From assembly GCA_022180565.1 (NCBI GenBank), contig BQML01000029.1, forward strand, positions 18,174-82,173: a DNA stretch of 64,000 nt. Reading direction: 5' to 3'. A model generated the notes under the pieces. The model saw only the letters and a program-made list of their open reading frames with translations. It was not told where the DNA came from and searched no databases. The stretch comes from Bacteroidia bacterium. Lineage in GTDB: Bacteria > Bacteroidota > Ignavibacteria > UBA10030. A program made the position numbers and the translations under genes. Within the stretch, counting starts at the first letter, position 1; every line of letters begins with the position of its first letter. Shown one piece after another: positions 5,303-57,727 of this stretch.

Positions 5303-5305
5303 CGC

Positions 5306-5831: not shown

Positions 5832-5841
5832 ATGGCACTGC

Positions 5842-10976: not shown

Positions 10977-10977
10977 A

Positions 10978-11931: not shown

Positions 11932-12018
11932 TGCTTCAAATCCCGCTAAATCATTGACAATCCTGCAAGTTATCGTTACATTCCTTTCGCCCGGATCACG
12001 ATTTCTCTCACCCCTTAC

Positions 12019-14213: not shown

Positions 14214-14252
14214 GCACTATATTCTTCCCTCTAAACTGATTACATTCCTCCT

Positions 14253-34717: not shown

Positions 34718-34723
34718 GGAGCG

Positions 34724-36115
34724 ATGACCATGAGATCGACAGGAATAGCCCTTGCACTTCTGCTGAGCGCATCCGTCGTTGTTGCCCAGAAAGAGCTTCC
34801 GCCCCCGGGCGGAAAGCCGAAGGACTTCACGCTTCCTCGCAAGACTCAAATAGCCCTTCCCAACGGCCTCACAGCCGTCCTTGTTCCATACGGCTCCCTG
34901 CCGAAAGTCACGGTGAGCGTTGTCGTCCGATCAGGGAACATCAATGAAAAAGAGAACGAGGTCTGGCTTGCGGATGTCATGGGAGACATGATGAAGGAGG
35001 GGACCAGAAGCCGGTCGGCTCAGCAAATTGCCGAAGAAGCAGCGTCCATGGGCGGTTCAGTGAACATTTCCACGGGTCTTGATCAAACAACGATCAACGG
35101 CGACGTTCTCACCGAGTACGGTCCCAACCTTGTGAATCTTCTGGCGGATATTGTCCGGAACCCTCTGTTTCCGGAGTCCGAGCTGCAGAGGATCAAGAAC
35201 GACCGGATCCGGCAGCTGACGGTGGCCAAATCATCTCCCCAGCAACAAACGCTGGAGCAGTTTCGACGCATCATCCACGGCAATCATGCGTATGGACGGA
35301 TCTTTCCGACGCAGGAAATGCTTGAAGGATACACCCTCGATCAAATCCGGAAATTCTATGAGAACAACTTCGGAGCCCGCCGCACCACCGTGTATGTCGC
35401 CGGTGTGTTCGATCTCGGAGTGATGGAGCAGGCGATTCGAAAGGAATTTTCGTCGTGGAAGTCTGGACCGGAGCCGCTGATCGACATTCCCACGCCTTCG
35501 ATGAAGAAGGCGTTTCATCTGATTGACAGGCCGGGGGCGCCCCAGTCCACCATCTACCTGGGACTCCCTGTTGCCAATCCGTATGACAAAGACTTTGTAC
35601 CTCTGGTCGTTACGAACGCCTTGCTGGGCGGATCATTCGGATCGAGGATTACGAGCAATATCAGGGAACAGAAAGGTTACACGTACTCGCCGTTCAGTCA
35701 ATTGTCCAGCCGGTATCGCGACGCCTACTGGGCCGAAGTGGCCGACGTGACGACGGACGTCACCGGTCCGGCTCTCAAGGAGATTTTCAAGGAGATCAGG
35801 AAGTTGCAGAATGAACCCCCGCCTGCCGAAGAATTGCAGGGGATCCAGAATTACCTGGCGGGAACCTTCGTGCTCCAGAACTCAAGCCCGGGCGGCATTA
35901 TTGGCCAGCTCGCATTTCTGAATCTCCACGGCCTCAGCGATGATTATCTCACGAAGTACGTTCAAAATGTCTACGCCGTGACGCCGCAGAAGGTATCGGA
36001 AATGACAAAGAAGTACATCCGGGAAGATAACATGACGCTGGTGATCACTGGCGACAAAAAGAAGATTGAATCGCAGATCGAGGAGTACGCGAAACCGGCG
36101 CCGGAGATGAAGTAA
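34724..36115 (+). CDS. M16-family peptidase, non-catalytic partner subunit
   Basis: Signal peptide; M16 fold features but no HxxEH; immediately downstream of the catalytic subunit. Confidence 0.8.
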   Translation: MTMRSTGIALALLLSASVVVAQKELPPPGGKPKDFTLPRKTQIALPNGLTAVLVPYGSLPKVTVSVVVRSGNINEKENEVWLADVMGDMMKEGTRSRSAQQIAEEAASMGGSVNISTGLDQTTINGDVLTEYGPNLVNLLADIVRNPLFPESELQRIKNDRIRQLTVAKSSPQQQTLEQFRRIIHGNHAYGRIFPTQEMLEGYTLDQIRKFYENNFGARRTTVYVAGVFDLGVMEQAIRKEFSSWKSGPEPLIDIPTPSMKKAFHLIDRPGAPQSTIYLGLPVANPYDKDFVPLVVTNALLGGSFGSRITSNIREQKGYTYSPFSQLSSRYRDAYWAEVADVTTDVTGPALKEIFKEIRKLQNEPPPAEELQGIQNYLAGTFVLQNSSPGGIIGQLAFLNLHGLSDDYLTKYVQNVYAVTPQKVSEMTKKYIREDNMTLVITGDKKKIESQIEEYAKPAPEMK

Positions 36116-42546: not shown

Positions 42547-42573
42547 TCGCACGTTCCCCTGTATATTGTACCG

Positions 42574-43041
42574 ATGGTAATCTTCACGCTCTGTTTGTGG
42601 ATGTTCACGTCATTTTCTCTGGCCGCTCAGGAGCCGGAGATCCATGTCGTCATAAGAAAGGGCGGCTACACATTGACGGTTTTCAGGGGAGATTCCGCGT
42701 TGCGCGTGTTCCGCGTCGCCGTCGGCAAGAATCCCGGAAACAAACAACAACGGGGAGATTGGAGAACACCGGAGGGAACCTTCTCCATTGCGCACATCCA
42801 GCGATCCAACCACTGGGTTCATGATTTTGGCGACGGAAAAGGGGAGGTCAAGGGGGCATACGGACCGTGGTTTATCAGATTGCAAACCGGCCGGTGGACA
42901 GGCATCGGAATCCACGGCACCCATGATCCGGCTTCCCTTGGTACGATGGTAACCGAAGGGTGCGTGAGGCTTCGCAATGAGGATTTGGAGGAACTTCAGA
43001 CCATGGTGACGATCGGCACGCGCGTTGCTATTCTTCCGTAA
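42574..43041 (+). CDS. L,D-transpeptidase (YkuD domain) with N-terminal signal/anchor
   Basis: ...GIHGTHDPASLGTMVTEGCVRLRNEDL, the His/Cys catalytic motif of L,D-transpeptidases. Start set at the ATG downstream of the terminator-like hairpin; the tracked ORF starts at 42463. Confidence 0.75.
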   Translation: MVIFTLCLWMFTSFSLAAQEPEIHVVIRKGGYTLTVFRGDSALRVFRVAVGKNPGNKQQRGDWRTPEGTFSIAHIQRSNHWVHDFGDGKGEVKGAYGPWFIRLQTGRWTGIGIHGTHDPASLGTMVTEGCVRLRNEDLEELQTMVTIGTRVAILP

Positions 43042-43090
43042 CTGCATTCATTGCTTCTGCTTTCTCCTTCCCCTATATTCGTCGAGCACC

Positions 43091-43564
43091 ATGGCCATTC
43101 AAATCCGACAAGCGAGGCCTGAAGACGCTCCTCTGATTGCTCAGTACAACGCCTTCATGGCGTTGGAAACCGAAAACCGGGTTTTGGATCAGGACACGTT
43201 ACGGAAAGGCGTGGAAACGGTCCTGACCAATCCGGTGTGCGGAGTGTACTACCTCGCCGAGATCGACGGCCGTCTTGCGGGACAGCTGATGATCACATAC
43301 GAATGGAGCGATTGGCGCAATGGCACGTTCTGGTGGATCCAGAGCGTATACGTGAGGGAAGAGTATCGACAAAAAGGCGTCTTCAAGGCACTCTATCGTT
43401 TTGTGGAATCACAGGCGCGTTCGAAGCCGGATGTCTGTGGTCTCCGCCTCTACGTGGAGCATGACAATGCCAAGGCGAAACGTATTTATGAGAACCTCGG
43501 CATGAAAAAGACGGCCTATGAGCTCTATGAGCTGGATTTTGTGCTCGGGAAGGGCTCTTCATGA
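43091..43564 (+). CDS. GNAT-family N-acetyltransferase
   Basis: 157 aa; acetyl-CoA-binding motif region (V..EYRQKGVFKALY); start at ATG 43091. Confidence 0.7.
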   Translation: MAIQIRQARPEDAPLIAQYNAFMALETENRVLDQDTLRKGVETVLTNPVCGVYYLAEIDGRLAGQLMITYEWSDWRNGTFWWIQSVYVREEYRQKGVFKALYRFVESQARSKPDVCGLRLYVEHDNAKAKRIYENLGMKKTAYELYELDFVLGKGSS

Positions 43565-44208
43565 ATTGTTGCCCGGTGTCCCCATGTCCCGGCACAAACC
43601 GGTTCTTCACCCGCTGGGCGAAGAATTACGCGAAGCAATTCAGAAAAAAAGGGCTCGACAAAGCTCAGCAATATCTTCTTGAAGGCATTGCCCGCGTGCC
43701 GATTGCCGCACCGGAGGTTTTGGACATCGGTTGCGGCGTGGGTGCAGTCCATTTGGTCCTGCTCCAACAAGGCGCATCGCGGGTGACGGGTGTTGATATG
43801 GCTGAAGGCATGCTGGCCGAGGCAAGGCGGCTGGCGGAAGAGAAACAGCTCGCCGATAGAACATCCTACATTCAAAACGATTTCATCACAATCTCTCATC
43901 AGGTTCCCCAGGCCGACATTACCATCCTGGACAAGGTCGTGTGTTGTTATGAAAAAGCCGACGACCTTGTCGAAGGTTCACTGAATAAGACAAAACGAAT
44001 TTACGCCGTCACGCATCCAAGAGAATCCTTCATCGTTCGCTGGGGGTTCCTGCTGTATATCGCATTCTCCCAATTTGTTCGAGCCGCATTCCACCCCTAC
44101 TGGCACAACTGGCAGAACCTTCGATCCGCGATCTCTGCACGCGGGTTCAGGCTTGTCTATGAGAACTCCACTTTTTTCTGGAACGTCCTGGTATTTGAGC
44201 GCGCCTAG
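43561..44208 (+). CDS. Class I SAM-dependent methyltransferase
   Basis: VLDIGCGVGAV (motif I) and an acidic residue at the end of beta2; overlaps the GNAT stop (ATGA). Confidence 0.65.
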   Translation: MNCCPVSPCPGTNRFFTRWAKNYAKQFRKKGLDKAQQYLLEGIARVPIAAPEVLDIGCGVGAVHLVLLQQGASRVTGVDMAEGMLAEARRLAEEKQLADRTSYIQNDFITISHQVPQADITILDKVVCCYEKADDLVEGSLNKTKRIYAVTHPRESFIVRWGFLLYIAFSQFVRAAFHPYWHNWQNLRSAISARGFRLVYENSTFFWNVLVFERA

Positions 44209-44220
44209 CGGACTCCCCAG

Positions 44221-45525
44221 ATGAATTCCCTCGACACCCCAGCGTCACCCGGCGGGTACCATTCGGAAAACATCATTCTGATCGCGGCTGTGGCAATTCA
44301 TTGTTGTATGCTCCTGTCGCTCGGGATGGGGTTCCTCAATCCCCTCTTCGATGATGCCATGCACCGATCCGGGCAGGCCGCGGATTTTTTTGCCGTGTAC
44401 CAAGCCGGTACGAATCTTGTTGACGGCGTGAGTGTCTATTCGACATCGCCGGACCGTCAGTCGGTTCCCTATTACTATCCCTATCGATACCATCCGTTCG
44501 TGGCTCTTACTCTTGGGTTAGCGATCCAGCCGCTTCCGCCCTTTGTTGCGTACGGAATCTGGATCGTCCTCCTGGAGCTTATCCTCCTTGTCAATCTTAA
44601 ACTGACATGGTCGTTGTTCGACCGGAAATCCGACGCGGTGAAAGCTCTGGTCCTCTGGCTGGTGTTCTCGCCCATGTACCTTGAGCTCTATATGGGCCAA
44701 TTCTCTTACGCTATGGCGAGCATCATGTTCTGGTGCATCATCGCCTGGGCGCGGGGAAAGAGACTTCAAGGTGACCTGTGGTGGTCGCTCTCCCTTGTCC
44801 TGAAGTCCAATTCTGCGCTGTTCGCTCCCGTGTTGCTCCGCGAACGGAAGTGGCTCTCCATTTTCGCGGCAGGAGGGGCAGCCGTACTTGCCGGCCTGCC
44901 GTATTTTCTGGCGGTTCCCGGCAGTTACCCGGAATTCGCCCAAAACTACACTGCCCGTATGACGGTATCGACGCTTCTCGGAAACCAGGGATTTGCCGCC
45001 CTGATGGGGATGATGATCGTTCGAGCGTCGGGACTGTGGACGGGGGACCTTCACGTGCTGGGTCAGAGGGTTCCCCAGATGGACCAACTTATGGAAGTGC
45101 CGATTTTGATGTGGACCATGCTGATCATCGGAACGGCCCTGTATGTGACTTTCAAGTCTCAACGCCCCGAGGGACCTGAATTCTATCTCCTCTGGCTTCT
45201 GGCATACGTTCTCTTCTACAAGCACGTTTGGGAACATCAGTACGTCATGCTGCTTCCGGTCTTTGCGCTTTTGTACTGGCGAATGACCAGAGGGGGATTG
45301 AATCTCTCGCCGGTAATCTTTTGGTCCGTGTTTGCAGTTGTCGCCCTTCCGACGGTGTTCGTGTTTCTCGACCGCGCCCAGGTTCTGTTCGACCCCGAAC
45401 TGTCCTGGAATATCTGGGAAAGCGTGGCTTTCCATGCTCCCAAGCCGCTGGCTGTCCTTGTCCTGTTTGCGCATCTTTCCTCTGTCCTCTTGAAACCCTT
45501 CCCCCGGTTTGATCCTGCTCCATGA
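44221..45525 (+). CDS. Polytopic membrane protein, DUF2029 / GT87-like (putative glycosyltransferase)
   Basis: 434 aa with about 10 TM helices; early loop with aromatic/Pro-rich motif (YYYPYRYHPF) as in DUF2029 mannosyltransferase-like proteins. Confidence 0.5.
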   Translation: MNSLDTPASPGGYHSENIILIAAVAIHCCMLLSLGMGFLNPLFDDAMHRSGQAADFFAVYQAGTNLVDGVSVYSTSPDRQSVPYYYPYRYHPFVALTLGLAIQPLPPFVAYGIWIVLLELILLVNLKLTWSLFDRKSDAVKALVLWLVFSPMYLELYMGQFSYAMASIMFWCIIAWARGKRLQGDLWWSLSLVLKSNSALFAPVLLRERKWLSIFAAGGAAVLAGLPYFLAVPGSYPEFAQNYTARMTVSTLLGNQGFAALMGMMIVRASGLWTGDLHVLGQRVPQMDQLMEVPILMWTMLIIGTALYVTFKSQRPEGPEFYLLWLLAYVLFYKHVWEHQYVMLLPVFALLYWRMTRGGLNLSPVIFWSVFAVVALPTVFVFLDRAQVLFDPELSWNIWESVAFHAPKPLAVLVLFAHLSSVLLKPFPRFDPAP

Positions 45526-47459
45526 GGCTGAAGCAACAGCATATCGCGATCGTCGTCGCCGTGTTTGTGTGCATCGTCTTTTCCGCTGCAACGGGATCGT
45601 TCGCCTACTTTTCGAACAAAGGGTTCGGTTTTCCCCTGGATGATCCATGGATCCATCTCCAGTTCGCGAAGAATCTCGCTGAGCACGGAAGCTTCTCGTA
45701 CTACAAAGATGAAATGCCGACATCGGGCTCGACGGCGCCTCTCTATACTCTCCTGGCGGCCGCAGGATTCCTGGTGACGCATCACGAGATGATCCTGAGT
45801 TATGTCCTCGGTGTACTGGCCTATATTGTCGCGATCGTGTATTTCTTCAAGCTCACGGAGCGCGTGTTCGACGGCGCAATTCTTCCCGCACTTGCAGGCA
45901 CGGTCCTGTTCGCCCTCGAGCCGCGTCTGCACTGGGCCGCGCTTTCCGGAATGGAAACAACGCTTTTCATCGCGCTCTTGCTTGCGGCCGTTCATTCCTA
46001 TCAGTCGCAAAAAGGCATCATGCTCGGCATTGTGAGCGGATTACTGCTCTGGACACGGCCCGAAGCAGTTATCCTCTACGCGGCGATGGCGGCAGATTGG
46101 GGATTCCGACGGTTAACCGTACCCGGAGCTGAACGGAAGGCCTTATGGTCACGGTCTCCCTGGCTGGTCCAGGCAGGGGCAATCGCCTGTGTGCTGGGCT
46201 TGGGATATGCCGGCTTCAACCTCTCTCTCTCGGGATCCATTCTTCCAAACACCTATGCCGCCAAACTTGCGTACTACAGCGGTACCGGGACAGATTTTCC
46301 TCGTGCTGTCTTTCACTGGCTTACCGGCAACCACATTGTTATTGTTTCTGTCCTTGCAGGCGGAGGAATTCTTCAGTCTCTTTTTCAAGCGGTTCGACGA
46401 CAACCGTCGGACACCGTCCTTCCCCTTCTGTTCACTGTTGGCCTCTTCACCTCATACTGGATGAAGCTCCCCTATTTGTATCAGAACGGACGTTACATGA
46501 TGCCGATTCTGCCGTTTGTCATCCTCCTCGGCCTGTCGGGTCTGCACTGGATGTCGACGCGAGCGGGAGAGAGATTTTCCCGTCTGTTGTCTGCGCGTAC
46601 GATCCGAGCTGTACAGATAACCTTGATGGCCTTTCTCATCATCCAGTTCGCTCTGGGCGTCTGGGACGGAAGAGTTCTCTATCAGGAATCATGCAAGTAC
46701 ATCTCTGATCGCCAGGTCCGCACAGCTTTGTGGATTCGCGATCACCTTCCGCAGGATGCCATTGTCGCAACCCACGACGTGGGGGCGCTTGCATATTATT
46801 CGGAGAGACGCATTGTGGATATGGTAGGATTGATCTCCCCCGAAATCATTGATCATCTTAAGAACCTTTCCGCCACAAAGGAGTTTCTCGTTCGACACAA
46901 TGTCACCCACCTGGCTGTTCTTCGAAACTGGTTTGAAGTTGTGAATGTGAATCCGATCTTCCAGACCAGGGAAGCAACGCCGGAGATTATGGAGGTGTTC
47001 AGGTTCGAGCCGGACAGCCTCCATTTTACCTCGCCTTTCGTCGCGTGGCTGACCTCTCGCGCATGGTCATATCTCTCACGCGGTGATGTGCGCGAGGGAA
47101 AACCTCTGGCAGAACGAGCCGTTCAGCTTGATTCCCTTTCTTCGCGGGCGCACCATCACCTTGGATGGGCTTTGATGATGGAGGGGGATTTGGACGGGGC
47201 GGAGCACGAATTTCACGCCGCACTTCGTCTTCATCCGGAATACTGGTCAGCCCATTTTGCCCTGACTCAGGTGCCTCTGCGAAGGGGCCAGCCGCTTGAG
47301 GCCGTTCGGCGCCTGAAACTCTTGCTCAAGGCGAATCCAAATATGCTTGCAGCCTATCAGGCGATTGCCCAGATTTACGGGCAGATGGGGGAAAACGAGA
47401 AGGCGGCGCAGGCGGCCCGTGAGTATCAGACGAGAATTGCCGCACAACAGAACGATTGA
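45522..47459 (+). CDS. GT-C-fold-like polytopic membrane protein (ArnT/PMT-like N-terminal region) with C-terminal TPR repeats
   Basis: 645 aa; about 11 TM helices with an Asp-rich first loop (PLDDPW); the C-terminal ~150 aa contain TPR-like repeats. Confidence 0.5.
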   Translation: MRLKQQHIAIVVAVFVCIVFSAATGSFAYFSNKGFGFPLDDPWIHLQFAKNLAEHGSFSYYKDEMPTSGSTAPLYTLLAAAGFLVTHHEMILSYVLGVLAYIVAIVYFFKLTERVFDGAILPALAGTVLFALEPRLHWAALSGMETTLFIALLLAAVHSYQSQKGIMLGIVSGLLLWTRPEAVILYAAMAADWGFRRLTVPGAERKALWSRSPWLVQAGAIACVLGLGYAGFNLSLSGSILPNTYAAKLAYYSGTGTDFPRAVFHWLTGNHIVIVSVLAGGGILQSLFQAVRRQPSDTVLPLLFTVGLFTSYWMKLPYLYQNGRYMMPILPFVILLGLSGLHWMSTRAGERFSRLLSARTIRAVQITLMAFLIIQFALGVWDGRVLYQESCKYISDRQVRTALWIRDHLPQDAIVATHDVGALAYYSERRIVDMVGLISPEIIDHLKNLSATKEFLVRHNVTHLAVLRNWFEVVNVNPIFQTREATPEIMEVFRFEPDSLHFTSPFVAWLTSRAWSYLSRGDVREGKPLAERAVQLDSLSSRAHHHLGWALMMEGDLDGAEHEFHAALRLHPEYWSAHFALTQVPLRRGQPLEAVRRLKLLLKANPNMLAAYQAIAQIYGQMGENEKAAQAAREYQTRIAAQQND

Positions 47460-47460
47460 A

Positions 47461-49338
47461 ATGATTCCGATGTTGAGGAACAACATGAAGAACGGCCGCT
47501 GGATCCTGATGATCGTTCTTGTGCTCGCCGTCCATCGCGTGCCTCTGATGGGACAGGAGCCCGAAGCGATCGTGAAATTGCGCCTGGCTCAGAGTTTCGA
47601 AAGGGCGGGCGACTGGGAACGCGCCGTGCCCATCTATGAATCACTTCTCCTGACCGATCCGCGAAACTACGTTTATTTTGAGGCACTTCGCCGTGGCTAC
47701 GTTCAGCTTCGGGAGTATGACAAGGCGGTTGAATTGATCGAATATCGCCTCACGTTGGAGCAAAACAACCCCCAACTGCTCGCCACGCTGGGGAGCGTGT
47801 ACTACCAAATGGGGAAAGAATCTACGGCTGATTCGCTCTGGCAGGCCGTGGTACGGCTTGATTCAAAGAACCCCTCCATGTACCGGCTGATCGCCGGTCA
47901 GATGCTGGAATTCCGTCTGTATGACCGGGCAATTGACCTGTTCACGCGGGCACGCAAGATCACGGGTGACCCACACCTGTTTCTCAGTGAACTCGCCAAC
48001 CTCTATGGAGCCTTTCAACAGTACGGCAGGGCGGCGGAGGAATTCGTGCAGTTGCTCGTGCTTCAACCCGCCCAGCTCTCCGACATACAGTCAAGGATAT
48101 CTGTGTTCTTCGGCCGGCCTGAAGCGATCACGGCAACACGAGAAGTCGTTGCGCGAGCACTCACCAAGCGCGAGGATTTCGTTCCTCTCCGACAGTTCTA
48201 TGCCTGGGTGTTGATGGAAGAGAAGCGGTACGACGCAGCGTTGGAACAGTACCGGATTATTGACAGGACAATGCGGGCGAGGGGAGCGCAGTTGTTCAAG
48301 TTTGCGGAGCGGGCCGCGGACGAGGGGGAGTATCGCATTGCAGCGTCTGCCTGCGATGAAGCGTTGAAAGCAGATCCCCCGACCGAACTTATCCCGCTCA
48401 TCCGTCTGAAGTATGCGCGTGCCATTGAAGAGTTGACGATCGACCAAGACACGACGGCGGCTCCTCCCGCACCGCGAAGGGCAATTCCGGAAAGCGCCCT
48501 CTCTTCCGGAACAGCCCTGAAGCTGTATGCTTCGGTTGCACAGGAGTACTCCGGCACGCGGCATGCAGCACAAGCATATTTTCGGATGGGGATTCTTCAG
48601 AGAGACCGTTTCCGTGATCTGGATGCAGCTTTGGCAGCTTTTAATGAGGCGGTTCGGGCCGGAGCGGGTCTCCCAGTCGCCGAGAAAGCCCTCCTGGAGA
48701 GGGCCGATGTTTTGGTGGCGAAGAATGATCTCGAAAAGGCACGCGAAACGTACACGTTATTGTCGTCATCTCGATCGGCCGACATGCGCGACCGCGCATT
48801 GTTTCATCTGGCGGAACTGGACTACTACACGGCGGAATTCGATTCCGCTCTGGCAGTGCTGGGCCGTCTGGCCGCCCAGCCGGCTACAGACCTGGCAAAC
48901 GATGCGCTGAGCCTGCGGTATTTTATTGAAGAGAATCACGGGCTGTTCACAGAAGCATTGAAGGCTTATGCTTCGGCGGACTTGCTCTGTCGACAGAAAA
49001 GAGACTCGGAGGCGCTTGAAGCCTTCCGGTCCATTCTGCGTCGGTTTCCAACCGCCCTCCTCGCGGACGATGCAGCGTTCACCGTGGGCGAACTCCTCGT
49101 TCGCCTGCGCCGGTACGACGACGCAGTGAAAGCCTTTCGGAGCATAGCCGACGATATGCCGTCAAGTATTCTGCGGGATCTGGCTTTGATGAGGATAGGT
49201 GAGGTTTACGAAAGGGAAATGCATGTTTCTCCCCTGGCCATTGAAACATATGAGGAACTCCTCAGATTGTTTCCGGGTTCCATCCACGCAGAAGAGGCGC
49301 GGAAACGTATCCGGCGACTCAGGGGGGATGTGTTATGA
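47461..49338 (+). CDS. Tetratricopeptide-repeat protein with N-terminal signal/anchor
   Basis: About 625 aa consisting almost entirely of TPR-like helical repeats; start at ATG 47461, overlapping the previous stop. Confidence 0.6.
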   Translation: MIPMLRNNMKNGRWILMIVLVLAVHRVPLMGQEPEAIVKLRLAQSFERAGDWERAVPIYESLLLTDPRNYVYFEALRRGYVQLREYDKAVELIEYRLTLEQNNPQLLATLGSVYYQMGKESTADSLWQAVVRLDSKNPSMYRLIAGQMLEFRLYDRAIDLFTRARKITGDPHLFLSELANLYGAFQQYGRAAEEFVQLLVLQPAQLSDIQSRISVFFGRPEAITATREVVARALTKREDFVPLRQFYAWVLMEEKRYDAALEQYRIIDRTMRARGAQLFKFAERAADEGEYRIAASACDEALKADPPTELIPLIRLKYARAIEELTIDQDTTAAPPAPRRAIPESALSSGTALKLYASVAQEYSGTRHAAQAYFRMGILQRDRFRDLDAALAAFNEAVRAGAGLPVAEKALLERADVLVAKNDLEKARETYTLLSSSRSADMRDRALFHLAELDYYTAEFDSALAVLGRLAAQPATDLANDALSLRYFIEENHGLFTEALKAYASADLLCRQKRDSEALEAFRSILRRFPTALLADDAAFTVGELLVRLRRYDDAVKAFRSIADDMPSSILRDLALMRIGEVYEREMHVSPLAIETYEELLRLFPGSIHAEEARKRIRRLRGDVL

Positions 49339-50609
49339 AGCGGATGATTTCGGGGATGATGCTTCTTCTCTGCATCGTGGTGACCGGCGCAAGGGCGCAG
49401 TCGAGGCTTCTCATCCCGATGGATGGGGTCCAGGGGAATCATCTGAAATCGTACGGCGTTGCCTTTTGGTTTCTGGAGCGCGGCGGTACTGTGGATTGGT
49501 TGCTGAATTATCGGGGGGGATCGTTTGTCATGGAGTACAGCGAAGTGCTCGCGCGGGAGTGCAGGATACGAGGGGTGCTTTTTGAAGCACTGGAGGGAGC
49601 GGCGGCGACACGGATCTATGCCGACGTGCAGAGGGAAGACAGCAACACCGATGTGGTCCGGCTGGAGAAGGCGCCCAGAATAGCCGTTTACGTTCCGCCG
49701 AACTTCAAACCGTGGGATGATGCCGTAACGCTCGCGCTGGAATACGCAGAGATTCCCTATACCAAAGTATGGGACGAGGACGTTCTTTCGGGAAAGATAA
49801 CGGAATACGATTGGCTCCATCTTCACCACGAGGACTTCACGGGGCAATACGGCAAATTCTATGCGAGTTACCGGAATGCCCAGTGGTACATTTCCCAACA
49901 ACTTCTGTACGAGCGGGAAGCTCACAGATTGGGATTCAAGAAGGTGTCTGAAGAGAAGAAAGCGGTTGCGCGGGCAATCAGGGATTACATAGGACAGGGG
50001 GGATTCATGTTTGCAATGTGTTCCGCGACGGACAGCTATGATGTCGCTCTTGCTGCGGAGGGGGTGGACATTTGTGACGTCATGTTCGATGGTGATCCGC
50101 CGGACAGGAACGCCCAGGAAGCTCTGGACTTCGGCAAGACTTTGGCGTTTGAGGGATTCACTCTCGATATGAATCCTTTGCGTTACGAGTATTCCGATAT
50201 CGATATTCCTTCGAGTGATCCGCCGCCCCTGCGGGATCCGAACACCGACTATTTTACTCTGTTCGAATTCTCTGCGAAGTATGATCCTGTACCGTCCATG
50301 TTGACACAGAACCATGTGAACATTGTGCGGGGTTTTATGGGCCAGACCACGGCGTTCCGAAAGAGCCTCATCAAACGAACGGTGGTGATCCTCGCAGAGA
50401 GGGAGGGAACGGAGGAAGTGAAATATCTGCACGGAAATTTCGGTCGGGGGACCTTTACGTGGTACGGAGGCCACGATCCCGAAGATTACCAGCATGCCGT
50501 CGGTGACCCGCCGACGGATCTGAATTTGTACAAAAACTCACCCGGGTACCGGCTGATCCTCAACAATATTCTCTTTCCCGCCGCAAAGAAGAAACAGCAG
50601 AAAACGTAG
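49335..50609 (+). CDS. Secreted hypothetical protein (possible class-I glutamine-amidotransferase-like fold with a Cys in a nucleophile-elbow-like context)
   Basis: Signal peptide; GGFMFAMCSAT resembles a nucleophile elbow; no confident family assignment. Confidence 0.45.
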   Translation: MKRMISGMMLLLCIVVTGARAQSRLLIPMDGVQGNHLKSYGVAFWFLERGGTVDWLLNYRGGSFVMEYSEVLARECRIRGVLFEALEGAAATRIYADVQREDSNTDVVRLEKAPRIAVYVPPNFKPWDDAVTLALEYAEIPYTKVWDEDVLSGKITEYDWLHLHHEDFTGQYGKFYASYRNAQWYISQQLLYEREAHRLGFKKVSEEKKAVARAIRDYIGQGGFMFAMCSATDSYDVALAAEGVDICDVMFDGDPPDRNAQEALDFGKTLAFEGFTLDMNPLRYEYSDIDIPSSDPPPLRDPNTDYFTLFEFSAKYDPVPSMLTQNHVNIVRGFMGQTTAFRKSLIKRTVVILAEREGTEEVKYLHGNFGRGTFTWYGGHDPEDYQHAVGDPPTDLNLYKNSPGYRLILNNILFPAAKKKQQKT

Positions 50610-50637
50610 CGAAGGCAGACTCGCCTTGCAATGGAAA

Positions 50638-50683
50638 GGGCCGGCCCTTGAAGGAGGAAGAGGACCGGCCCTTTTTTGTTTCT
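50638..50683. terminator. Bidirectional terminator between convergent genes
   Basis: GGGCCGG ... CCGGCCC stem followed by TTTTTTGTTTCTC on the plus strand; a weaker T-tract on the minus side. Confidence 0.45.
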
Positions 50684-50695
50684 CTGTTAAGGTGT

Positions 50696-51739
50696 CTACA
50701 ATCCGAGCTTGATGCCGAACACGTGATTATCGTCGAAGAACTCTGTGGCTTGGTAGCCATAGTCCACGGCGATGTTCATGGTCGGACTCAGATTAAACTT
50801 GACACCTGCGCCTACCGTGAACGTGTACATCGCTTCCTCCGTCGGTAGGTCCGGAGAGAGCGAATAACCGCCTCGCACGAACAGCGTGTTGTCGTACGAC
50901 CATTCTCCGCCGATTCTGAAATCATCGTAGGAAAAGTTGTTGTGGACGAAGGTTCCGGTAAGGACAAGACTCGATTGTGCCATCAGGGATATCTCATAGG
51001 ATGTCCCGAATTCGAGGGTTGACGGCAGGTCGAACTCCTGTGCGGTGATCCGCAAGGGCCGGGGCTGTGATCCCGGCTCGGTGCCGGGAATTTGTACGGT
51101 CTGTTCCAGGTCCGGTCCATCGAACCGCATGTTCGGCCCGAGGTTCTTCATGGCCACACCGAACTTGAACCCGCGCAAGCCCGTCTGATACTGCAGACCG
51201 AAATCAAATGCGATGCCCGTTGCGCTTTCTCTCATGATGGTTTCCGACACCACTTTGAGGTTGAGTCCAAAAGCAATACGGTCGGTCATCATTTTGGAAA
51301 AATTCAGCGCGAGCGTGATGTAGTTCGGCGAGTAGGTCTCACCTGTCCCGTCGGGATAGGCGGTCGTCGTAATGGGGATGTCTCCGAAGTTGAGCGTTTG
51401 AATGCTGAATCCCAACGTGCCGAATTCGCCCAGTCTTGCAGCGACCGCGGCATATTCAACGCTCACATCAGCCATATAGTTCATGTGCGTGAACATTGCC
51501 TCCGCAGAGCCCGGGAGAATGGCCACGCCGGCAGGATTCCAATACATAGCCTCCACGCCCTGGATTCCAGAGGTGTAGGAACCCGAGAGCCCGATGCCGC
51601 GGGCACCGAGCGGAATCAACAACTCCTGTGCACCCGAGGTCCCTTTCCGCCTTCCGGTTCCCGCCTCAACGACAGCCACACTGCCGGCCAGCACGCTGAG
51701 GAGGAGCGCCCAGACCGTTGTCCGAGAGATTGTTTTCAT
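50696..51739 (-). CDS. PorV/PorQ-like outer-membrane beta-barrel protein (T9SS-associated, FadL-like)
   Basis: Signal peptide; N-terminal ...ARGIGLSGSYTSGIQGVEAMYWNPAGVAIL resembles the PorV N-terminal motif (AR.GGMG...YWNPA); beta-strand-rich; C-terminal GIKLGL. Confidence 0.5.
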   Translation of the reverse strand: MKTISRTTVWALLLSVLAGSVAVVEAGTGRRKGTSGAQELLIPLGARGIGLSGSYTSGIQGVEAMYWNPAGVAILPGSAEAMFTHMNYMADVSVEYAAVAARLGEFGTLGFSIQTLNFGDIPITTTAYPDGTGETYSPNYITLALNFSKMMTDRIAFGLNLKVVSETIMRESATGIAFDFGLQYQTGLRGFKFGVAMKNLGPNMRFDGPDLEQTVQIPGTEPGSQPRPLRITAQEFDLPSTLEFGTSYEISLMAQSSLVLTGTFVHNNFSYDDFRIGGEWSYDNTLFVRGGYSLSPDLPTEEAMYTFTVGAGVKFNLSPTMNIAVDYGYQATEFFDDNHVFGIKLGL

Positions 51740-51819
51740 GATACACTCCTTAGGATTTTCTTTCGTGTCATGGCAAAACGTTCGAGAGGCCGGAGCCAGG
51801 AGCCTCCGGCCGCACGATC

Positions 51820-54800
51820 TTAAAGTCGATCCAACCGCTCCTCGGGCTGGATCACCCCGAGTTTCAGGATCTTGGTTCCGACATCTTTGATGTCTACTTC
51901 GATCAGGTACATGCCGCTGGCAACCGGAATGCCGTCTGTGTTGCGTAAGTCCCAGCGCTCGAAGGTCGAGCCGGGGGAGTGCTCGAGCTGACGCACAAGC
52001 ACACCGGAGACCGTAAAGATCCGAATGACCACCCTCCCTTGTTCCGGGAGGCGAGAGAACGTGACAAACCGATTCAGCGGATCGCGTTCGTTTACCTGAG
52101 CTCCGAAGTATGGATTCGGGAACACATTGATCTTCGCAACGTCGGACTTTGCCAGCTCTGGACTGACGGTAGGTTGGTAACCTGCTGTTGTGAATGTGAA
52201 CCGGTCGTTCTCAGTGTTCACAAAATTCGGGACAATCGTGAACACCTGGCCGTCTTGGGGATTGAACGGCATCGTTCCACGCTGCAGGGGCCACAGCGCG
52301 TATAACGTCGGCATGGTCGCAGCTCCCGAAAGGGCGTTCACACCCGTATAGAGGGCATCCGGCGTCGCAGTGTAATCCGTATTGAAGATGAACAGGTACT
52401 CCCGGTCTGCACTGCTTGCCGTGGGCTGCCAGAGATTATTGTTGGCCGCCGAGCCCGCTTGCTCAACATAACCGGCCGCCAACTGGCGTTCAGGATTGGA
52501 GGTGACATCCCAAACGGAGAAATGCTGAAGTTCGTAACTGACATATCCGTAACTGGGTGTTCCTCCGCGGAGGTACATGTACGCCCGCTGTCCGTCGGCA
52601 ACGTTGGTATGAAAGCGGATCTCCACGGTCACGTATTGAGCCGGTGTGATGCTGCTGCCGAAGAAGTTGACGCCAAGATCGAGTCCGCCGAAGAATTCGT
52701 GCCCTCCCCAGTTGACCCCGGTGAACCATCGGTCGCCGGCCGGCTCGAAGGACCACTCCTTGATAGCAAGCGGAGGACCGGCAACCTTCATCTGCAATCC
52801 GTCAACAAAAGGAGCCGTTCCATCCCCGGCCTGAGTCATGTTCACCAGTCTATTCGAGTTTGTTGTGAGGTCCTTCAGCGTCCATTTGTAGTCATCATCA
52901 ACCGCGCTGTAGGCAAAGGTGACTTCGTAGTCGTGTCCGGTCACTCTGGTCGGATCAACGACAATGGGTGTCACGGTACCGTCGCTCAATCCGGCGGCGT
53001 GAATCGCACGGATGGTGTCGCCCACCGCCGCGTTCCATCGTGTGCCCGGCGGAGGCGCGTGCGGACGAACGGTAATAATTGATCGGGAGCTCTCCAGCAT
53101 GTGAGGGACACCCCATTCGTTGTACGCGTAGGATGTTATGATGAAGTAATAGGGATTTCCGTTGACCAGCGGAAGTCCCGAGAGGGCATCCATTTTCGTG
53201 GAGTACTTCCTCTGTAACCCGGAGTTGGTTCCCTTAACAACAGTGACTTCGACATTCTCACCGTAGTTTGGGTCGTACTTGAAGTCCTTGATCGCCAGAA
53301 CCATGTTGTCCAGATCATACGTCGCCAACGTTCGATAGATCGTGGGAGCCGTCGGGTGATCAACCTGATAGACGACATAACCCTCAAAAACATACTGGGT
53401 CGTATTTCCAGATGTATCCTTTTTGATCAGGTCCTGAGCAACGTAACTCTCGGCGTTGTCTTCCCAGGCAAAGGATACTTCCCCGTCGAGCTCCGTCACC
53501 GTGACGTTCGGTGCCGGAGGAGACGGGGGCAGGGCGAAGTTAACGTCGTAAGCCGTCTGCGCCATGGCATCGATTTCCTTCAGCACGGCAACACTGTTCT
53601 TGTTATTTGCGCCGAGGGCAATCAACACACCGAACACAACTTCCTGAGTGTCACCTGGATTGAACGTAAACGGACCGGAAGACATCAAGAATCGCCTGTC
53701 GCCGGGTGAAAGAATCGTTGGATTGATTTCACTCCAACCTGATCCGGCGACCGGATCGCCCGGGAACACGAACCGTGTTGGTTGTGAAGTCATCGGATTG
53801 ATGAACGGAGAACCATCCTGATACCGCCCGGTCATGTAGTTGAAGGCCTCTTGAGCATTCTCAGGATCACGCCGGGGATAGGTTGCACCGTTGATATAGT
53901 AGGCAAACGAGTACATCGGCAGATTCTTGTAGCCCGGAATGCGGCGACCGGATACAAGGGCGGTGTCTCCAGGCGAAGGGACAATGGGACCCTGAAAGAA
54001 ATCACGACCAATGGCGGGAGGCTGTGTGCCGTAATACCCCACGTCATTGTTGTCCGCGTTCCAGCAGTACCCGAGACTCAGCGTCGTGTCACAGCCGACG
54101 TAATCGTCTCCCGCGTCGCCAAGATCCGGATCATCCCACAAAGCGATGAACGTGGAATCGATCGTCGCCGTGCCTTTGTGAATGATCTTGGCCTTGATGA
54201 ACATCATGTCGCCAAAGGCATCCGGCCGATCATATCCCCAAACCGTGAGCTGGACTTCGATCCCAAGGGGCTGGGTTCCGAAGATGTTCGCGTGGCGCGC
54301 TCCATCCATGTCGTTGAAGACACACCACATGGTCATATCGCCCATCAACAGTGGATTTCCGAGGGAATCTACAGGTGCGCCGTCGCCTACGGGCCAGTTC
54401 TGATAATCGTCGCCGGGCGTGATAAGGTCTGCCCGTGTGATCTTATACCACCGATAGTGGGGCTTTGTGGCGTCATCTGCCACGCCACCCACGATCTTGC
54501 CCGGGGTGAACTCCGAGGCATACTCCGCTGCCGCGGTCCTGAATTCGTTACCGACCTTGCCGGCTACCCAGACGCCTGCAGCATAATCAATGGTTTTGAA
54601 TGTGCCCTTGGGCCATTCCATGCCGGAATTTCCGGTCACAACCTGGGATACATATTGACCATCGTTACCCATGATCGCGTTGATGCGATTCCCGTCGAAG
54701 TTCTTGTATTCGAGAACGCCCGTTTTTTCAAGCCGCGTCACAGGCTTCTTGTCTTTTCGGTCGCCGCCGTCGGCGATTGTCAGACCAATCCCAAGGAACA

Positions 54801-54846
54801 GGATGACCGCCATCGCCAGCCGGCTTCGATTCAAGATTGTTTTCAT
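51820..54846 (-). CDS. Large secreted protein with T9SS type-A C-terminal sorting domain (function unknown)
   Basis: 1008 aa; signal peptide; C-terminal ~80 aa (INVFPNPYF...VIRIFTVSGVLVRQL...GMYLIEVDIKD...KLGVIQ) matches the Por secretion CTD. Confidence 0.75.
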   Translation of the reverse strand: MKTILNRSRLAMAVILFLGIGLTIADGGDRKDKKPVTRLEKTGVLEYKNFDGNRINAIMGNDGQYVSQVVTGNSGMEWPKGTFKTIDYAAGVWVAGKVGNEFRTAAAEYASEFTPGKIVGGVADDATKPHYRWYKITRADLITPGDDYQNWPVGDGAPVDSLGNPLLMGDMTMWCVFNDMDGARHANIFGTQPLGIEVQLTVWGYDRPDAFGDMMFIKAKIIHKGTATIDSTFIALWDDPDLGDAGDDYVGCDTTLSLGYCWNADNNDVGYYGTQPPAIGRDFFQGPIVPSPGDTALVSGRRIPGYKNLPMYSFAYYINGATYPRRDPENAQEAFNYMTGRYQDGSPFINPMTSQPTRFVFPGDPVAGSGWSEINPTILSPGDRRFLMSSGPFTFNPGDTQEVVFGVLIALGANNKNSVAVLKEIDAMAQTAYDVNFALPPSPPAPNVTVTELDGEVSFAWEDNAESYVAQDLIKKDTSGNTTQYVFEGYVVYQVDHPTAPTIYRTLATYDLDNMVLAIKDFKYDPNYGENVEVTVVKGTNSGLQRKYSTKMDALSGLPLVNGNPYYFIITSYAYNEWGVPHMLESSRSIITVRPHAPPPGTRWNAAVGDTIRAIHAAGLSDGTVTPIVVDPTRVTGHDYEVTFAYSAVDDDYKWTLKDLTTNSNRLVNMTQAGDGTAPFVDGLQMKVAGPPLAIKEWSFEPAGDRWFTGVNWGGHEFFGGLDLGVNFFGSSITPAQYVTVEIRFHTNVADGQRAYMYLRGGTPSYGYVSYELQHFSVWDVTSNPERQLAAGYVEQAGSAANNNLWQPTASSADREYLFIFNTDYTATPDALYTGVNALSGAATMPTLYALWPLQRGTMPFNPQDGQVFTIVPNFVNTENDRFTFTTAGYQPTVSPELAKSDVAKINVFPNPYFGAQVNERDPLNRFVTFSRLPEQGRVVIRIFTVSGVLVRQLEHSPGSTFERWDLRNTDGIPVASGMYLIEVDIKDVGTKILKLGVIQPEERLDRL

Positions 54847-54895
54847 TGTGAAATCTCCTCAGCGAATCAAGAAATTGACCATATTCAAAAGCCGG

Positions 54896-57727
54896 TTAAA
54901 AATCCACGCGCACTCCAAGACGCGTTTGACGCGGCGTTCCATAGTTGCCTGGGGCGGCAAGCCTGTACCGATATCCATCAACCGCCGCCTGACCGTTCTC
55001 CGCCGCATACGCCTGCCCGTCTGTCGTACGGAAATACCCGTCGTCGTTCGGTAGCCCCGTCTGGTTGTACACAAAGGTCACGTTCTTGGCATTCGTGACA
55101 TTGAGCATCCACAAATAAACATTGACCGTGGCTGGTCCCACCGAGAAGGTCTTATCGACCTTGAGGTCAAGTTGGAAGTTCCACGGTGAATATGTCTGAT
55201 TCATGGCCGCAACAGGTTGTTCCCATCCCGGTCCGAAGAGGACCGTGCTTGGGCGGGCCGGCGTGTATGGACGGCCACTGCCGAAGGTCAGCAACAGGTT
55301 GACGCCGACCTGCTCTAGGGGCTTCATGTCGTACAGGATGGGCCCGTCGCCGGCCTCGGTGCGGAAATCGACGTTCACGCTCCCCGTGTGCCGCTGATCG
55401 AAATCAAGGGGTGAGACAAAGGTCGGGAAGTTCGTGCCAAGCCATGCAATATTGAAATTTGTATTGGCTCCCGATCCGGTTCCGGATGCATATTGAAGCG
55501 TGTAATTCACCATCGCCGAAACACGGTTTGTTCGGCGCAAATTGAATGAGAAAGAAAGTCCCTTAACCGTCCCAAAATCACCGTTCGTATACTGGGCATA
55601 CGCAACCGGTTTCGCAAACACGTTGCGCAACTGGACCAGGTCACGGATGTCCTTGTAGTACGTCGTAATGTCGAGGCTGGCATTGGGGCCGATTTGCTGG
55701 CTAAAACCAACCTCATAGGTGATGGTTCTTTCCGGTTTCAGGCTTGGGTTACCCACCGTGACATAGTTTCCAGCAGTCAGCTCCTGGACCAGCCTCGTTG
55801 TGCTCGTGTACAGCCTGTTCAATTCGACATGCTGAATGAAATGGCCGTACTGAGCATGGAAGACGGTCTGGTCGGTGACAGGGAAGGAGAACCCGAGCCG
55901 GGGGCTGAAGGATGTCGTTGCTTCACCCGGTTCGAAGTTGTCCTCCGCGATCATCTGATAATTACCGGAGGGATGAGATACAATATGAATGTTGGTCGGG
56001 TCTTTGATCCTGTCCACATTCGCATTAATGTAATCCCATCGCAAACCGATGTTCAGAACGAGATCGGGAAGTTCCAGCTTATTCTGGGCATAGATGGCCG
56101 CGATGATCGGATGAGGCGCGCTGTTCCGGCTGCCGTCATCGAGGAAGGTCTTCTTGCCCTTTGCTACCCCATCCACCGTCAACCCGAGATTGGCTGTGTA
56201 CGAATTTCGAAGAAGCTCCTCGCGCGTGAAAGAAGGACTGGCGGCCTTTGCGAGCGCGAACCGCGCCGGAAGCGTGGACCAGTATCGAATTGTATTGTAC
56301 CGGTATTCGCCTCCGACCTTAAGCAGATTCGAACGATCGAGCTGATGGGTCAGATCAACCTTCACGCTCCAGTATGAGGAGCGGTTGTATTCGTACGCAA
56401 AATTGACGTACCCGGGACCCGCAAAGAGGTTTGCAAACCTGTTCGGAGGATTGCGGCCCGGCCCGCTGAGGACCGGGTTCTTCACGGGGTCCCCATACGA
56501 ATCAATGTCATCAAACCAGACCGGATCGCCCTGCTCATGCTCCGTTTGGAAAAAGCTCAGCATAACGGAATAGAAAGTCGAAGCTCCAAGCGTGTGAGTT
56601 CCTCTCAGATAATATGCATGAGTTGAGCGCTCGCGTTTCAGGTTCCGTTCGGAATTGAACACCGAATGATACTGATTGGGAATCCGGTCGTTGGTGAAGC
56701 TTGTGAAGCCCCCGAGGCGGAGATTGAACGGCTTGATGTCCCAAATCAGATTCGAATTGAGTGTCAAGATCTTCGAGGTGTTATTCGGAAGATAGAATTT
56801 GCGCCCGACACTTGGATTCCCGTCGAGGGCATACGTGTATTCCGTCCCCACATGAAAACGAAGAGCAGATCCGACGCCGGGAAAGGGCCCGCCGGCTGAC
56901 AAATGGAAGGTGGATGTTCCATAGGAGCGGAATCCGTGAGGAGCCTGCAAACCGTCGCGGACAAACTGAAGCGAATCCTTAGGAGCCGCACGCTTGTAGA
57001 ACATCTCATCGGAAATCACACCGACCGAGAATGTGTAGCGCTCGGTGCCGCCCTTGGTCGTCGCGCTGACAAGCCCGGCATTCGCGAACCCATACTCAGC
57101 ACTGAATCCCCCCGCCTGATACGTGACCTCTTCTATGGATTCATTGACCACAGCCCCTGCATTGGTGCTGTTGTACGGATTGTTGACGATCATGCCATCG
57201 ATGAAATAGGCAACTTCATCCGAACGGCCTCCGCGCACGTAGAGATTGTTCCCAAGCTTGACGATGCCGGGCTGGAGGGCGACAACGTCAAGGTATCCGC
57301 GGGTGGGGATGTTCTTGATTTCCTCCGAGCGGATCGTCATGATCGCATTCGTCGCGCTCTTGCTGACAAGAGGACGCTCGGCCACGATCTCGACTTCAGG
57401 CACGGCAATCGCTTCGCTCGAGAGTTCTGCATTGACCTCGGTTGTCAATTCCGACGTGACAATGACGTTGGAGACCGTCAGAGTTTGATAACCGATGTAG
57501 CTGAACCGGAGGGTGTAACTTCCAGGACGAACATCCAGAATGTAGTAATTGCCCTCAATGTCCGTGGCGGAACCTTGTGTTGAGCCCGCGATGATCACGT
57601 TGGCGCCAATGAGGGGTTCTCCCGACTGGGAGTCCGTGACCTTGCCGGCGATCTTTCCCGGGCCTTGCGCAACGAGCAGGGAGGAGGAGATGAAGACAAG
57701 GCACAAAACTGAAAGGAAATATTTCAT
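54896..57727 (-). CDS. TonB-dependent receptor with N-terminal carboxypeptidase-regulatory-like domain
   Basis: Signal peptide MKYFLSVLCLVFISSSLLVAQG; CarbopepD_reg-like (KIAGKVTD...GANVII...TDIEGNYYI); plug region; long beta-barrel; C-terminal ...RLGVRVDF. Start at ATG 57727 rather than the tracked 57811. Confidence 0.85.
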   Translation of the reverse strand: MKYFLSVLCLVFISSSLLVAQGPGKIAGKVTDSQSGEPLIGANVIIAGSTQGSATDIEGNYYILDVRPGSYTLRFSYIGYQTLTVSNVIVTSELTTEVNAELSSEAIAVPEVEIVAERPLVSKSATNAIMTIRSEEIKNIPTRGYLDVVALQPGIVKLGNNLYVRGGRSDEVAYFIDGMIVNNPYNSTNAGAVVNESIEEVTYQAGGFSAEYGFANAGLVSATTKGGTERYTFSVGVISDEMFYKRAAPKDSLQFVRDGLQAPHGFRSYGTSTFHLSAGGPFPGVGSALRFHVGTEYTYALDGNPSVGRKFYLPNNTSKILTLNSNLIWDIKPFNLRLGGFTSFTNDRIPNQYHSVFNSERNLKRERSTHAYYLRGTHTLGASTFYSVMLSFFQTEHEQGDPVWFDDIDSYGDPVKNPVLSGPGRNPPNRFANLFAGPGYVNFAYEYNRSSYWSVKVDLTHQLDRSNLLKVGGEYRYNTIRYWSTLPARFALAKAASPSFTREELLRNSYTANLGLTVDGVAKGKKTFLDDGSRNSAPHPIIAAIYAQNKLELPDLVLNIGLRWDYINANVDRIKDPTNIHIVSHPSGNYQMIAEDNFEPGEATTSFSPRLGFSFPVTDQTVFHAQYGHFIQHVELNRLYTSTTRLVQELTAGNYVTVGNPSLKPERTITYEVGFSQQIGPNASLDITTYYKDIRDLVQLRNVFAKPVAYAQYTNGDFGTVKGLSFSFNLRRTNRVSAMVNYTLQYASGTGSGANTNFNIAWLGTNFPTFVSPLDFDQRHTGSVNVDFRTEAGDGPILYDMKPLEQVGVNLLLTFGSGRPYTPARPSTVLFGPGWEQPVAAMNQTYSPWNFQLDLKVDKTFSVGPATVNVYLWMLNVTNAKNVTFVYNQTGLPNDDGYFRTTDGQAYAAENGQAAVDGYRYRLAAPGNYGTPRQTRLGVRVDF

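Follow-up and report, generated by a model that had tools for sequence, protein, structure and literature searches.

A clade-restricted gene block pairing a GT87 protein with a TPR-bearing GT-C protein in a UBA10030 bacterium

Whether a run of closely spaced genes serves a single envelope pathway is the question raised by positions 42574 to 50609 of a 64,000-nucleotide stretch of DNA (hereafter the window) on contig BQML01000029.1 of a Bacteroidia bacterium (GenBank assembly GCA_022180565.1; GTDB lineage Bacteroidota, Ignavibacteria, UBA10030). An earlier note on the window had grouped seven genes there into a dedicated pathway for decorating a cell-surface polymer. We number these genes g1 to g7 and describe them as an L,D-transpeptidase (g1), a GNAT acetyltransferase (g2), an S-adenosylmethionine (SAM)-dependent methyltransferase (g3), two polytopic glycosyltransferase-like proteins, of which the second carries tetratricopeptide repeats (TPRs; g4 and g5), an exported TPR protein (g6), and an exported Cys-containing protein (g7). 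The reading that we tentatively prefer, giving it a little less than an even chance, is a six-gene operon, g2-g7, restricted to a Bacteroidota/Ignavibacteria-like lineage. In it, three modules that stand apart in other lineages would be joined around a pair of glycosyltransferases that face the periplasm and draw on lipid-linked sugars. The first module would consist of the acetyltransferase, the methyltransferase and the GT87 protein (g2-g4); the second would be g5, a putative GT-C enzyme with a periplasmic TPR domain that occupies a position between tsaD and mltG in sister lineages; and the third would be g6-g7, an exported TPR protein and a highly conserved Cys protein spread across the Fibrobacteres-Chlorobi-Bacteroidetes (FCB) group.

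The boundaries of this block come from loci with a GT87 gene at least 40% identical to g4 and with sufficient flanking sequence, in which the retention of each gene was counted (Table 1). On these counts g1, which lies upstream of the block and is present in just 5 of 13 related loci, is a neighbour, the conserved unit is g2-g7, and the L,D-transpeptidase loses the place in the pathway that it had been given. Close relatives (g5 56-86% identical) preserve the entire order from an S46 peptidase gene to g7, which is uninformative because unrelated genes (S46, SnoaL, AMP-ligase) are likewise preserved there. Members of the clade whose GT87 is 44-55% identical retain g2-g3-g4-g5-g6-g7 with overlapping boundaries while both flanks have changed, and three types of flank were found: flanks as in the window (L081, L082, L092, and L094), a CLC channel gene before the block and DUF2179 after it (L089 and L090, with g2 coming after a divergent CLC channel gene in L089), and large minus-strand genes on either side of the block (L096, L099, and L109). 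In the window the PBP2-RodA genes (16565-19725) precede the cluster by about 25 kb, and in L089 (19969-21338) they are inverted and lie just downstream of g7, a displacement showing that the surroundings were rearranged while g2-g7 stayed intact. Bacteroidota_UBA10030 is the label of one related contig. The expectation that the cluster is conserved in relatives therefore stands for g2-g7 within one clade and across three flank types, but neither for g1 nor beyond that clade.

The two membrane proteins at the centre of the block are both glycosyltransferase-like, as the earlier note had proposed, g4 by its Pfam GT87 match and g5 by the structure of its model. For g4, a Pfam profile search upheld the GT87 call with 44.5 bits to PF09594 (cut-off 25; E 2e-11; profile positions 3-233 of 237), and its homologues carry PF09594 in precomputed annotation and are named glycosyltransferase 87 family or DUF2029 by NCBI; the family is small, with 76 matches in a word-indexed search. 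Among 34 homologues (25-100% identity), D55 in loop 1, Q160, K195, and W337-E338-H339 are invariant. PimE, the GT87 enzyme whose structure is known, has D58 as its catalytic base; its K195 is essential, and its W319 and H321/H322 are functionally important (PMC12041525). The likeness of D55, K195, and the W-E-H motif of g4 to these residues is suggestive, as a resemblance and not an alignment-checked equivalence: PDB searches with the g4 sequence and with its family profile gave no meaningful match, and because the GT87 family profile matches no PDB sequence, the residues of the two proteins cannot be aligned. Like PimE, g4 is polytopic, and its conserved loop-1 Asp, its invariant Lys195 and its W-x-H motif may have counterparts there, but no solved structure can be matched to it by sequence, even with a family profile, and it belongs to an FCB bacterium instead of an actinobacterium. 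A phosphatidylinositol-mannoside acceptor seems unlikely for g4 in an FCB host.

The label 'GT-C-like/TPR' that g5 had received proved apt, in that its model has the conserved GT-C membrane module and thus a GT-C fold, Pfam recognises its C-terminal TPRs, and PMT_2 (PF13231) is matched only below threshold (16.9 bits, Pfam cut-off 26.1), which also separates g5 from the PMT/POMT enzymes (GT39). The protein comprises about 11 transmembrane helices, a small alpha/beta domain (residues 414-503), and, following transmembrane helix 11, eight modelled helices (505-644) that make up four TPRs. Comparison of this model with known folds gave ALG12 (27.0), AglB (26.3), Pmt4 (24.7), STT3B (23.7), ArnT (23.5), AftA (22.4), PIG-M (21.8), Pmt2 (21.5), AftB (21.1), ALG9 (19.9), and PglB (19.5), and Foldseek was concordant with these GT-C matches. 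PDB sequence and profile searches with g5 returned TPR proteins only, and when 40 members of the g5 family were scanned, PMT_2 did not rank in the top 25 Pfam families by frequency. In the first loop, the motif F37-P-L-D40-D41-x-W-I-H-L-Q-F-A-x-N51 is invariant in the family alignment, and all 40 sequences compared (41-100% identity) carry D40 and D41, at the position of a catalytic acid, directly preceding the first juxtamembrane helix (41-55 of the model) on the predicted periplasmic side; GT-C enzymes bear their catalytic acid in the first loop at a juxtamembrane helix (PMC12041525; PMC10214176). Lys and Arg make up 12 of 46 short-loop residues on the predicted cytoplasmic side vs 1 of 15 on the other, and this bias, together with the eleven helices, places the N-terminus inside and predicts that the DD loop, the alpha/beta domain, and the TPRs are all periplasmic.

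A GT-C core combined with TPRs is the architecture of protein O-mannosyltransferases (PMC10214176). The likeness of g5 to TMTC1-4 (GT105) and TMEM260 is one of architecture, i.e., a GT-C core with a predicted extracytoplasmic TPR domain, without sequence membership, and the families listed by the Pfam scan of g5 include no TMTC-specific or DUF2723 family. From TMTC, TMEM260, and PMT proteins g5 differs further in being bacterial and in its extra conserved alpha/beta domain (THDVGA...DMVGL) between the membrane core and the TPRs, whereas ArnT (GT83), AftA, and AftB differ from g5 in having no TPR domain and in using lipid or polysaccharide acceptors, at 9-15% identity to g5.

A functional link of g4 with a second GT-C enzyme has modest, independent support from the recurrent pairing of such genes elsewhere. 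At 12 metagenomic loci with a GT87 of 30-37% identity, another large polytopic protein is encoded immediately downstream and bears the motif SDPYCYVQMA..L.E.G, which is like loop 1 of ArnT/PMT; at seven further loci with a distant GT87, the opposite strand nearby encodes a g5 homologue that lacks TPRs and shares the motif PLDDxxIHLQ; and a Pfam census of 107 neighbours of distant GT87 genes was topped by PMT_2, TPR, and methyltransferase families (3-4 proteins each). A seemingly conserved neighbour of the distant GT87 genes, cluster 7, was rejected as a spurious antisense open reading frame (ORF).

The cytoplasmic members of the block were matched by Pfam to Acetyltransf_1 (GNAT; g2, 53.7 bits) and Methyltransf_25 (g3, 47.6 bits), and neither has a hydrophobic segment. 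Because every specific NCBIfam equivalog scored far below its cut-off for g2 and g3, no substrate can be named for either. The neighbouring g1 matched Pfam YkuD with 82 bits and contains the catalytic His and Cys motif of that family (HGT...GCVR) in IHGTHDPASLGTMVTEGCVRL. Its signal peptide ends in AA, with Q next, and Gln directly follows each of the predicted signal peptides of g1, g6, and g7, which fits the rule outlined for Bacteroidetes signal peptidase I substrates (PMC5837995).

The last two genes of the block have a much wider distribution. In g6, TPR families cover the whole length, and residues 501-616 score 89.6 bits against TIGR02795 (YbgF/CpoB; cut-off 90.1); the protein is thus like CpoB/YbgF in being periplasmic and in its C-terminal region, but differs in its length of 625 aa with TPRs throughout, in falling just under the cut-off, and in having no adjacent tol-pal genes. 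A survey of 80 g7-anchored loci (L001-L080), with one genome per GTDB species, found a full-length g6 homologue directly upstream of g7 in 39 of them, and the pair occurs in metagenome-assembled genomes (MAGs) labelled Ignavibacteria, Calditrichaceae, Neomarinimicrobiota, Latescibacterota, KSB1, Gemmatimonadetes, Krumholzibacteria, and others. In 10-16 loci the pair stands behind a DUF4159 protein (208 bits) and a membrane protein of about 1100 aa with a DUF4175 match (33.1 bits, cut-off 27.3) and a long glutamine-rich, probably coiled-coil, region; this arrangement, with g6-g7 directly after both genes, was seen in Latescibacterota, Marinimicrobia, KSB1, Krumholzibacteriota, and others. The window differs in having neither gene; a search of it for tsaD, mltG, DUF4159, and DUF4175 genes found none. 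A literature search on DUF4159/DUF4175 returned nothing relevant.

Among the exported proteins seen in this neighbourhood and across the FCB phyla, g7 is one of the most conserved, and it is the one element that might surprise a specialist. More than 8000 homologues were found, the top 120 at 78-94% identity; identity between FCB phyla is 57-83%, and the L089 orthologue is 78% identical where g2-g6 of that locus are 40-54% identical. No Pfam, NCBIfam (E <= 0.01), or PDB sequence or profile search matched g7, and in an exhaustive profile search of 1.8 billion representatives (50% identity clusters) the best 150 matches, about 20 of them full length, were close relatives and fragments only and linked g7 to no other superfamily. 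Features conserved in the family include LIPMD..Q.NHLKAYG, WLLNYRGGSF, YDWLHLHHEDFTGQ, GGF(L/M)FAMCSATD, GHDPEDY, and the C-terminus SPGYRLILNNVLFPAAKKKxxKT; of 21 diverse members, 7 lack this basic tail and have a type IX secretion sorting domain there instead. The claim that g7 has a nucleophile-elbow-like Cys is plausible as regards the residue, but the fold is unproven: Cys229 is at least 90% conserved within the GGF(L/M)FAMC segment, g7 and DUF4159 share the local motif 'a..lr.Yl..GGFlfA', hhalign placed a 16-column local match between the two families at the Cys229 motif (probability 31%), and BPL_N gave sub-threshold matches in 4 of 21 g7 members, three of them in a common register. BPL_N and DUF4159 both belong to the class I glutamine-amidotransferase-like fold class, and these weak matches suggest a central domain of that class in g7, with Cys229 on a nucleophile elbow. 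A strand-Cys-helix pattern in the g7 model, built from an alignment of 24 sequences (79-89% identity), points the same way, though the model is a poor one (predicted local distance difference test score 39.8).

The name 'asparagine synthetase B', which stands on many database records of g7 homologues (NCBI), was rejected, as the protein has a signal peptide, no Asn_synthase or amidotransferase match, and no SGGxDS loop; a literature search on the 'asparagine synthetase B' family in Bacteroidota returned nothing relevant. Correcting this name and finding the function of g7 would be useful for genome annotation. Also rejected was the idea that g6 and g7 are themselves glycosylation clients, since the Bacteroidota sequon D-(S/T)-(A/I/L/V/M/T) is absent from g7 and occurs three times in g6, by a rough estimate about the number expected by chance.

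How these pieces might work together can be outlined as follows. In our preferred reading, g4 and g5 would be inner-membrane proteins whose acidic loop-1 motifs face the periplasm, and would move sugars from presumed polyprenyl-phosphate carriers onto an envelope acceptor. The TPR domain of g5, likened to the eukaryotic O-mannosyltransferases TMTC and TMEM260, would point to a protein as that acceptor; g4 would add or extend a hexose; and the cytoplasmic acetyltransferase and methyltransferase, for their part, may modify the sugar or the carrier. Several observations weigh against such a pathway. The acetyltransferase and methyltransferase have generic folds to which no substrate can be assigned, and the Pfam-scanned parts of the window hold neither a donor synthase (GT2) nor a flippase nor any further glycan gene, so that a dedicated pathway would be at best incomplete at this locus; the earlier statement that no substrate can be assigned to the membrane components accordingly still holds. 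None of g1-g5 occurs in any of the 80 g7 loci from GTDB species representatives. Homologues of g5 at 44-49% identity stand in the order tsaD-g5-yceG(mltG)-Big_5 in five of the six contigs sampled, between outer flanks that vary, and Ignavibacteria-type genomes have g5 homologues in this housekeeping context with no GT87 nearby; on the sixth contig g5 has another context, and the g6-g7 pair of that assembly lies on a different contig (L050). One locus with a GT87 at 43% identity (L108) is without the entire block, and the conservation within one clade may partly reflect shared ancestry, as the upstream M16 and S46 peptidase genes are also kept. The idea of a single dedicated decoration pathway conserved as a unit is thus not supported, with g5 housed between tsaD and mltG in other genomes and g6-g7 found FCB-wide with other partners.

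The main rival reading is a mosaic of unrelated neighbours, which we regard as less likely but a real possibility: g2-g7 would be one transcription unit, or simply an inherited order, of genes for different processes and no common pathway, g5 working with murein turnover (MltG), g6-g7 with a DUF4159/DUF4175 envelope module, and g2-g3 in cytoplasmic metabolism. The independent contexts of g5 (tsaD-g5-mltG-Big_5) and g6-g7 (with DUF4159-DUF4175) are better conserved than the block, the genes g1-g5 are missing from all surveyed g7 loci, and the unrelated upstream genes (S46, SnoaL, AMP-ligase) are order-conserved in close relatives too. A mosaic is harder to reconcile with a six-gene block that outlasts three independent changes of both flanks as well as the PBP2-RodA inversion, with the overlap of start and stop codons in the block, and with the recurrence of a GT87 beside a second GT-C gene in unrelated metagenomic lineages. 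A substrate shared by g6-g7 and g4-g5 is conceivable; what would connect the two pairs is their adjacency, the codon overlap, and their retention together in one clade. A related proposal, which we consider rather unlikely, is that g6-g7 with DUF4159/DUF4175 form the core of an FCB-wide envelope system in which g7 is a Cys-dependent enzyme of GATase1-like fold, coupled here to the GT-C pair through a common glycosylated envelope substrate; g7 would then act in the periplasm or on the cell surface, and some of its homologues would be type IX secretion cargo.

As for the acceptor, the resemblance of the g5 TPR domain to TMTC/TMEM260 slightly favours a protein, by analogy, over a lipid or the cell wall. 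That g4 and g5 instead modify a lipid or cell-wall acceptor, e.g., lipid A or the lipopolysaccharide (LPS) core (cf. ArnT), a glycolipid (cf. PimE), or a peptidoglycan-linked polymer, with the TPRs docking g5 to murein or outer-membrane machinery, seems to us unlikely. The argument for it comes from the linkage to mltG and from having ArnT, Aft, and PimE as relatives: ArnT, AftA, and AftB rank among the best structural matches of g5, PimE as the characterised GT87 enzyme produces a glycolipid (PMC12041525), g5 and mltG are translationally coupled in Ignavibacteria-type contigs, where they often overlap by 4 nt and are followed by SPOR-domain genes, a YkuD gene lies upstream in the window, and the g6 C-terminus is CpoB/YbgF-like. 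Against this stand equally strong fold matches to the protein-modifying AglB, STT3, Pmt4, and PglB, the absence of LPS or lipid genes from the block, and the fact that a TPR-fused GT-C core marks protein O-mannosyltransferases in the characterised cases considered here (PMC10214176). Least credible, and in our judgement very improbable, is the original proposal that all seven genes, with the L,D-transpeptidase and the secreted Cys protein included, form one surface-polymer decoration pathway. The genes are co-directional and tightly spaced, and g1, g4, g5, g6, and g7 are all envelope-located, but g1 is missing from 8 of 13 related blocks, g6-g7 are far more widespread than g2-g5 and have other partners, and the co-directional run reaches six genes further upstream.

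The enzymatic components of the block are all of known kinds, and GT-C-TPR fusions and DUF2029/GT87 proteins are already present in database annotation; the specific operon is new and confined to one uncultured lineage. GT-C enzymes are poorly charted beyond the model systems, among them the non-actinobacterial GT87 proteins and the bacterial GT-C proteins fused to TPRs, and two such enzymes paired in a conserved operon offer a place to seek glycosylation of periplasmic proteins or of the envelope in the Ignavibacteria/UBA10030 part of the FCB group. The tsaD-g5-mltG linkage in addition suggests that g5 is a housekeeping envelope enzyme tied to murein synthesis.

Table 1. Genes g1 to g7 and the downstream hairpin, with positions in the window and retention in related loci
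Feature	Position	Strand	Description	Kept in related loci
g1	42574-43041	+	exported L,D-transpeptidase (YkuD), 155 aa; neighbour, outside the conserved block	5/13 (upstream of block)
g2	43091-43564	+	cytoplasmic GNAT acetyltransferase, 157 aa; opens the conserved block	16/17
g3	43561-44208	+	class I SAM-dependent methyltransferase, 215 aa; CCPxxxC near N-terminus	17/19
g4	44221-45525	+	polytopic GT87-family glycosyltransferase, 434 aa	
g5	45522-47459	+	glycosyltransferase of GT-C fold (by model) with C-terminal TPRs, 645 aa	11/12
g6	47461-49338	+	exported all-TPR protein, 625 aa; C-terminal TPR module YbgF/CpoB-like	10/11
g7	49335-50609	+	exported protein without assigned function, 424 aa; near-invariant Cys229 in GGFMFAMCSATD; basic tail KKKQQKT	8/8
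hairpin	50633-50684	+	GC-rich hairpin, then UUUUUUGUUU, from sequence; minimum free energy -35.1 kcal/mol, z -2.0	

At the level of gene structure, all seven plus-strand ORFs of the earlier note were confirmed at their coordinates, and direct reading of the sequence bore out its overlaps or near-overlaps at 43561, 45522, 47461, and 49335. ATGA overlaps join g2/g3 (43561-43564), g4/g5 (45522-45525), and g6/g7 (49335-49338), the g5/g6 junction is TGA-A-ATG (the g5 TGA ends at 47459 and the g6 ATG is at 47461), and the gaps are 12 nt between g3 and g4 and 49 nt between g1 and g2; we presume that g2-g7 are co-transcribed. The orthologues of g1 measure 153-163 aa, and its start at 42574 was therefore preferred over 42463, where the longest ORF begins. 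The genes are co-directional as described, but the run is not one of seven: it counts 13 genes and starts at 33362, six genes upstream of g1, so that a left boundary at g1 is arbitrary. Its upstream part encodes two M16 peptidases, an S46 peptidase, a SnoaL-like protein, an AMP-dependent ligase, and a 614-aa unknown, and its largest intergenic gap (197 nt) lies directly before g1. The 86-nt spacer from the g7 stop to the convergent PorV/PorQ-family gene contains the hairpin with its U-run, which is likely the operon terminator and marks the right end. Internal terminator-like matches all fell within coding sequence and were disregarded.

A sigma-70 promoter scan gave 3 sites vs 4.4 expected, with a scan model that does not represent Bacteroidota promoters. 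The boxes TATATTGT and TATATTCG lie at 42562-42569 and 43073-43080, 5-18 nt 5' of the g1 and g2 starts; they appear to resemble the Bacteroidota -7 promoter element TAnnTTTG, which would imply very short leaders. Two antisense ORFs, 49206-50495 (-; 429 aa) over g7 and 44518-45723 (-; 401 aa) over g4/g5, were dismissed as artefacts with Arg-, His-, and Ser-rich translations, the former of which exceeds g7 in length and is chosen by a naive longest-ORF gene caller. At the protein level, g4 and g5 match HBSIN02_19670 and HBSIN02_19680 with 100% identity.

Several further arrangements were noted around homologues of g5, g6, and g7. The tsaD-g5-mltG-Big_5 order was located in L083-L088, L173, and L174 (genes at about 6000-14900), and tsaD lies divergently beside a g7 homologue in L076 and L079 (about 8925-9896, -), two Ignavibacteria MAGs, an arrangement that may reflect a former common neighbourhood or be coincidental. 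The order DUF4159-DUF4175-TPR(g6)-g7 was seen in L039, L042, L050, L054, L057, L060, L075, and L078 (about 4000-11300 in each), with MAG labels Latescibacterota, Neomarinimicrobiota, KSB1, Krumholzibacteriota, and Lentisphaeria. In 11 Ignavibacterium-type loci (L012-L034, about 8650-9930) clpX stands between the g6 and g7 homologues, and 7 loci, drawn from several phyla, have a UPF0047 (YjbQ-like) gene behind g7. Pairs of M16 peptidase genes lie between g6 and g7 in L001 (7248-9994) and L009 and directly after g7 in L094 (16754-19596), and in the window such pairs flank the cluster on both sides (33362-36115 and 58245-61048).

Downstream of the block, a minus-strand trio (50696-57811) runs convergent to g7 and encodes a PorV/PorQ-family protein, a 1008-aa protein, and a TonB-dependent receptor of CarboxypepD_reg type. 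The first of these genes (50696-51739, -) matched the PorV/PorQ family with 179 bits (cut-off 90), and the organism therefore probably has a type IX secretion system. The 1008-aa protein has a weak match like the PorZ C-terminus and is possible type IX secretion cargo; its gene and the PorV/PorQ gene are conserved only in the nearest relatives, L081 and L092.

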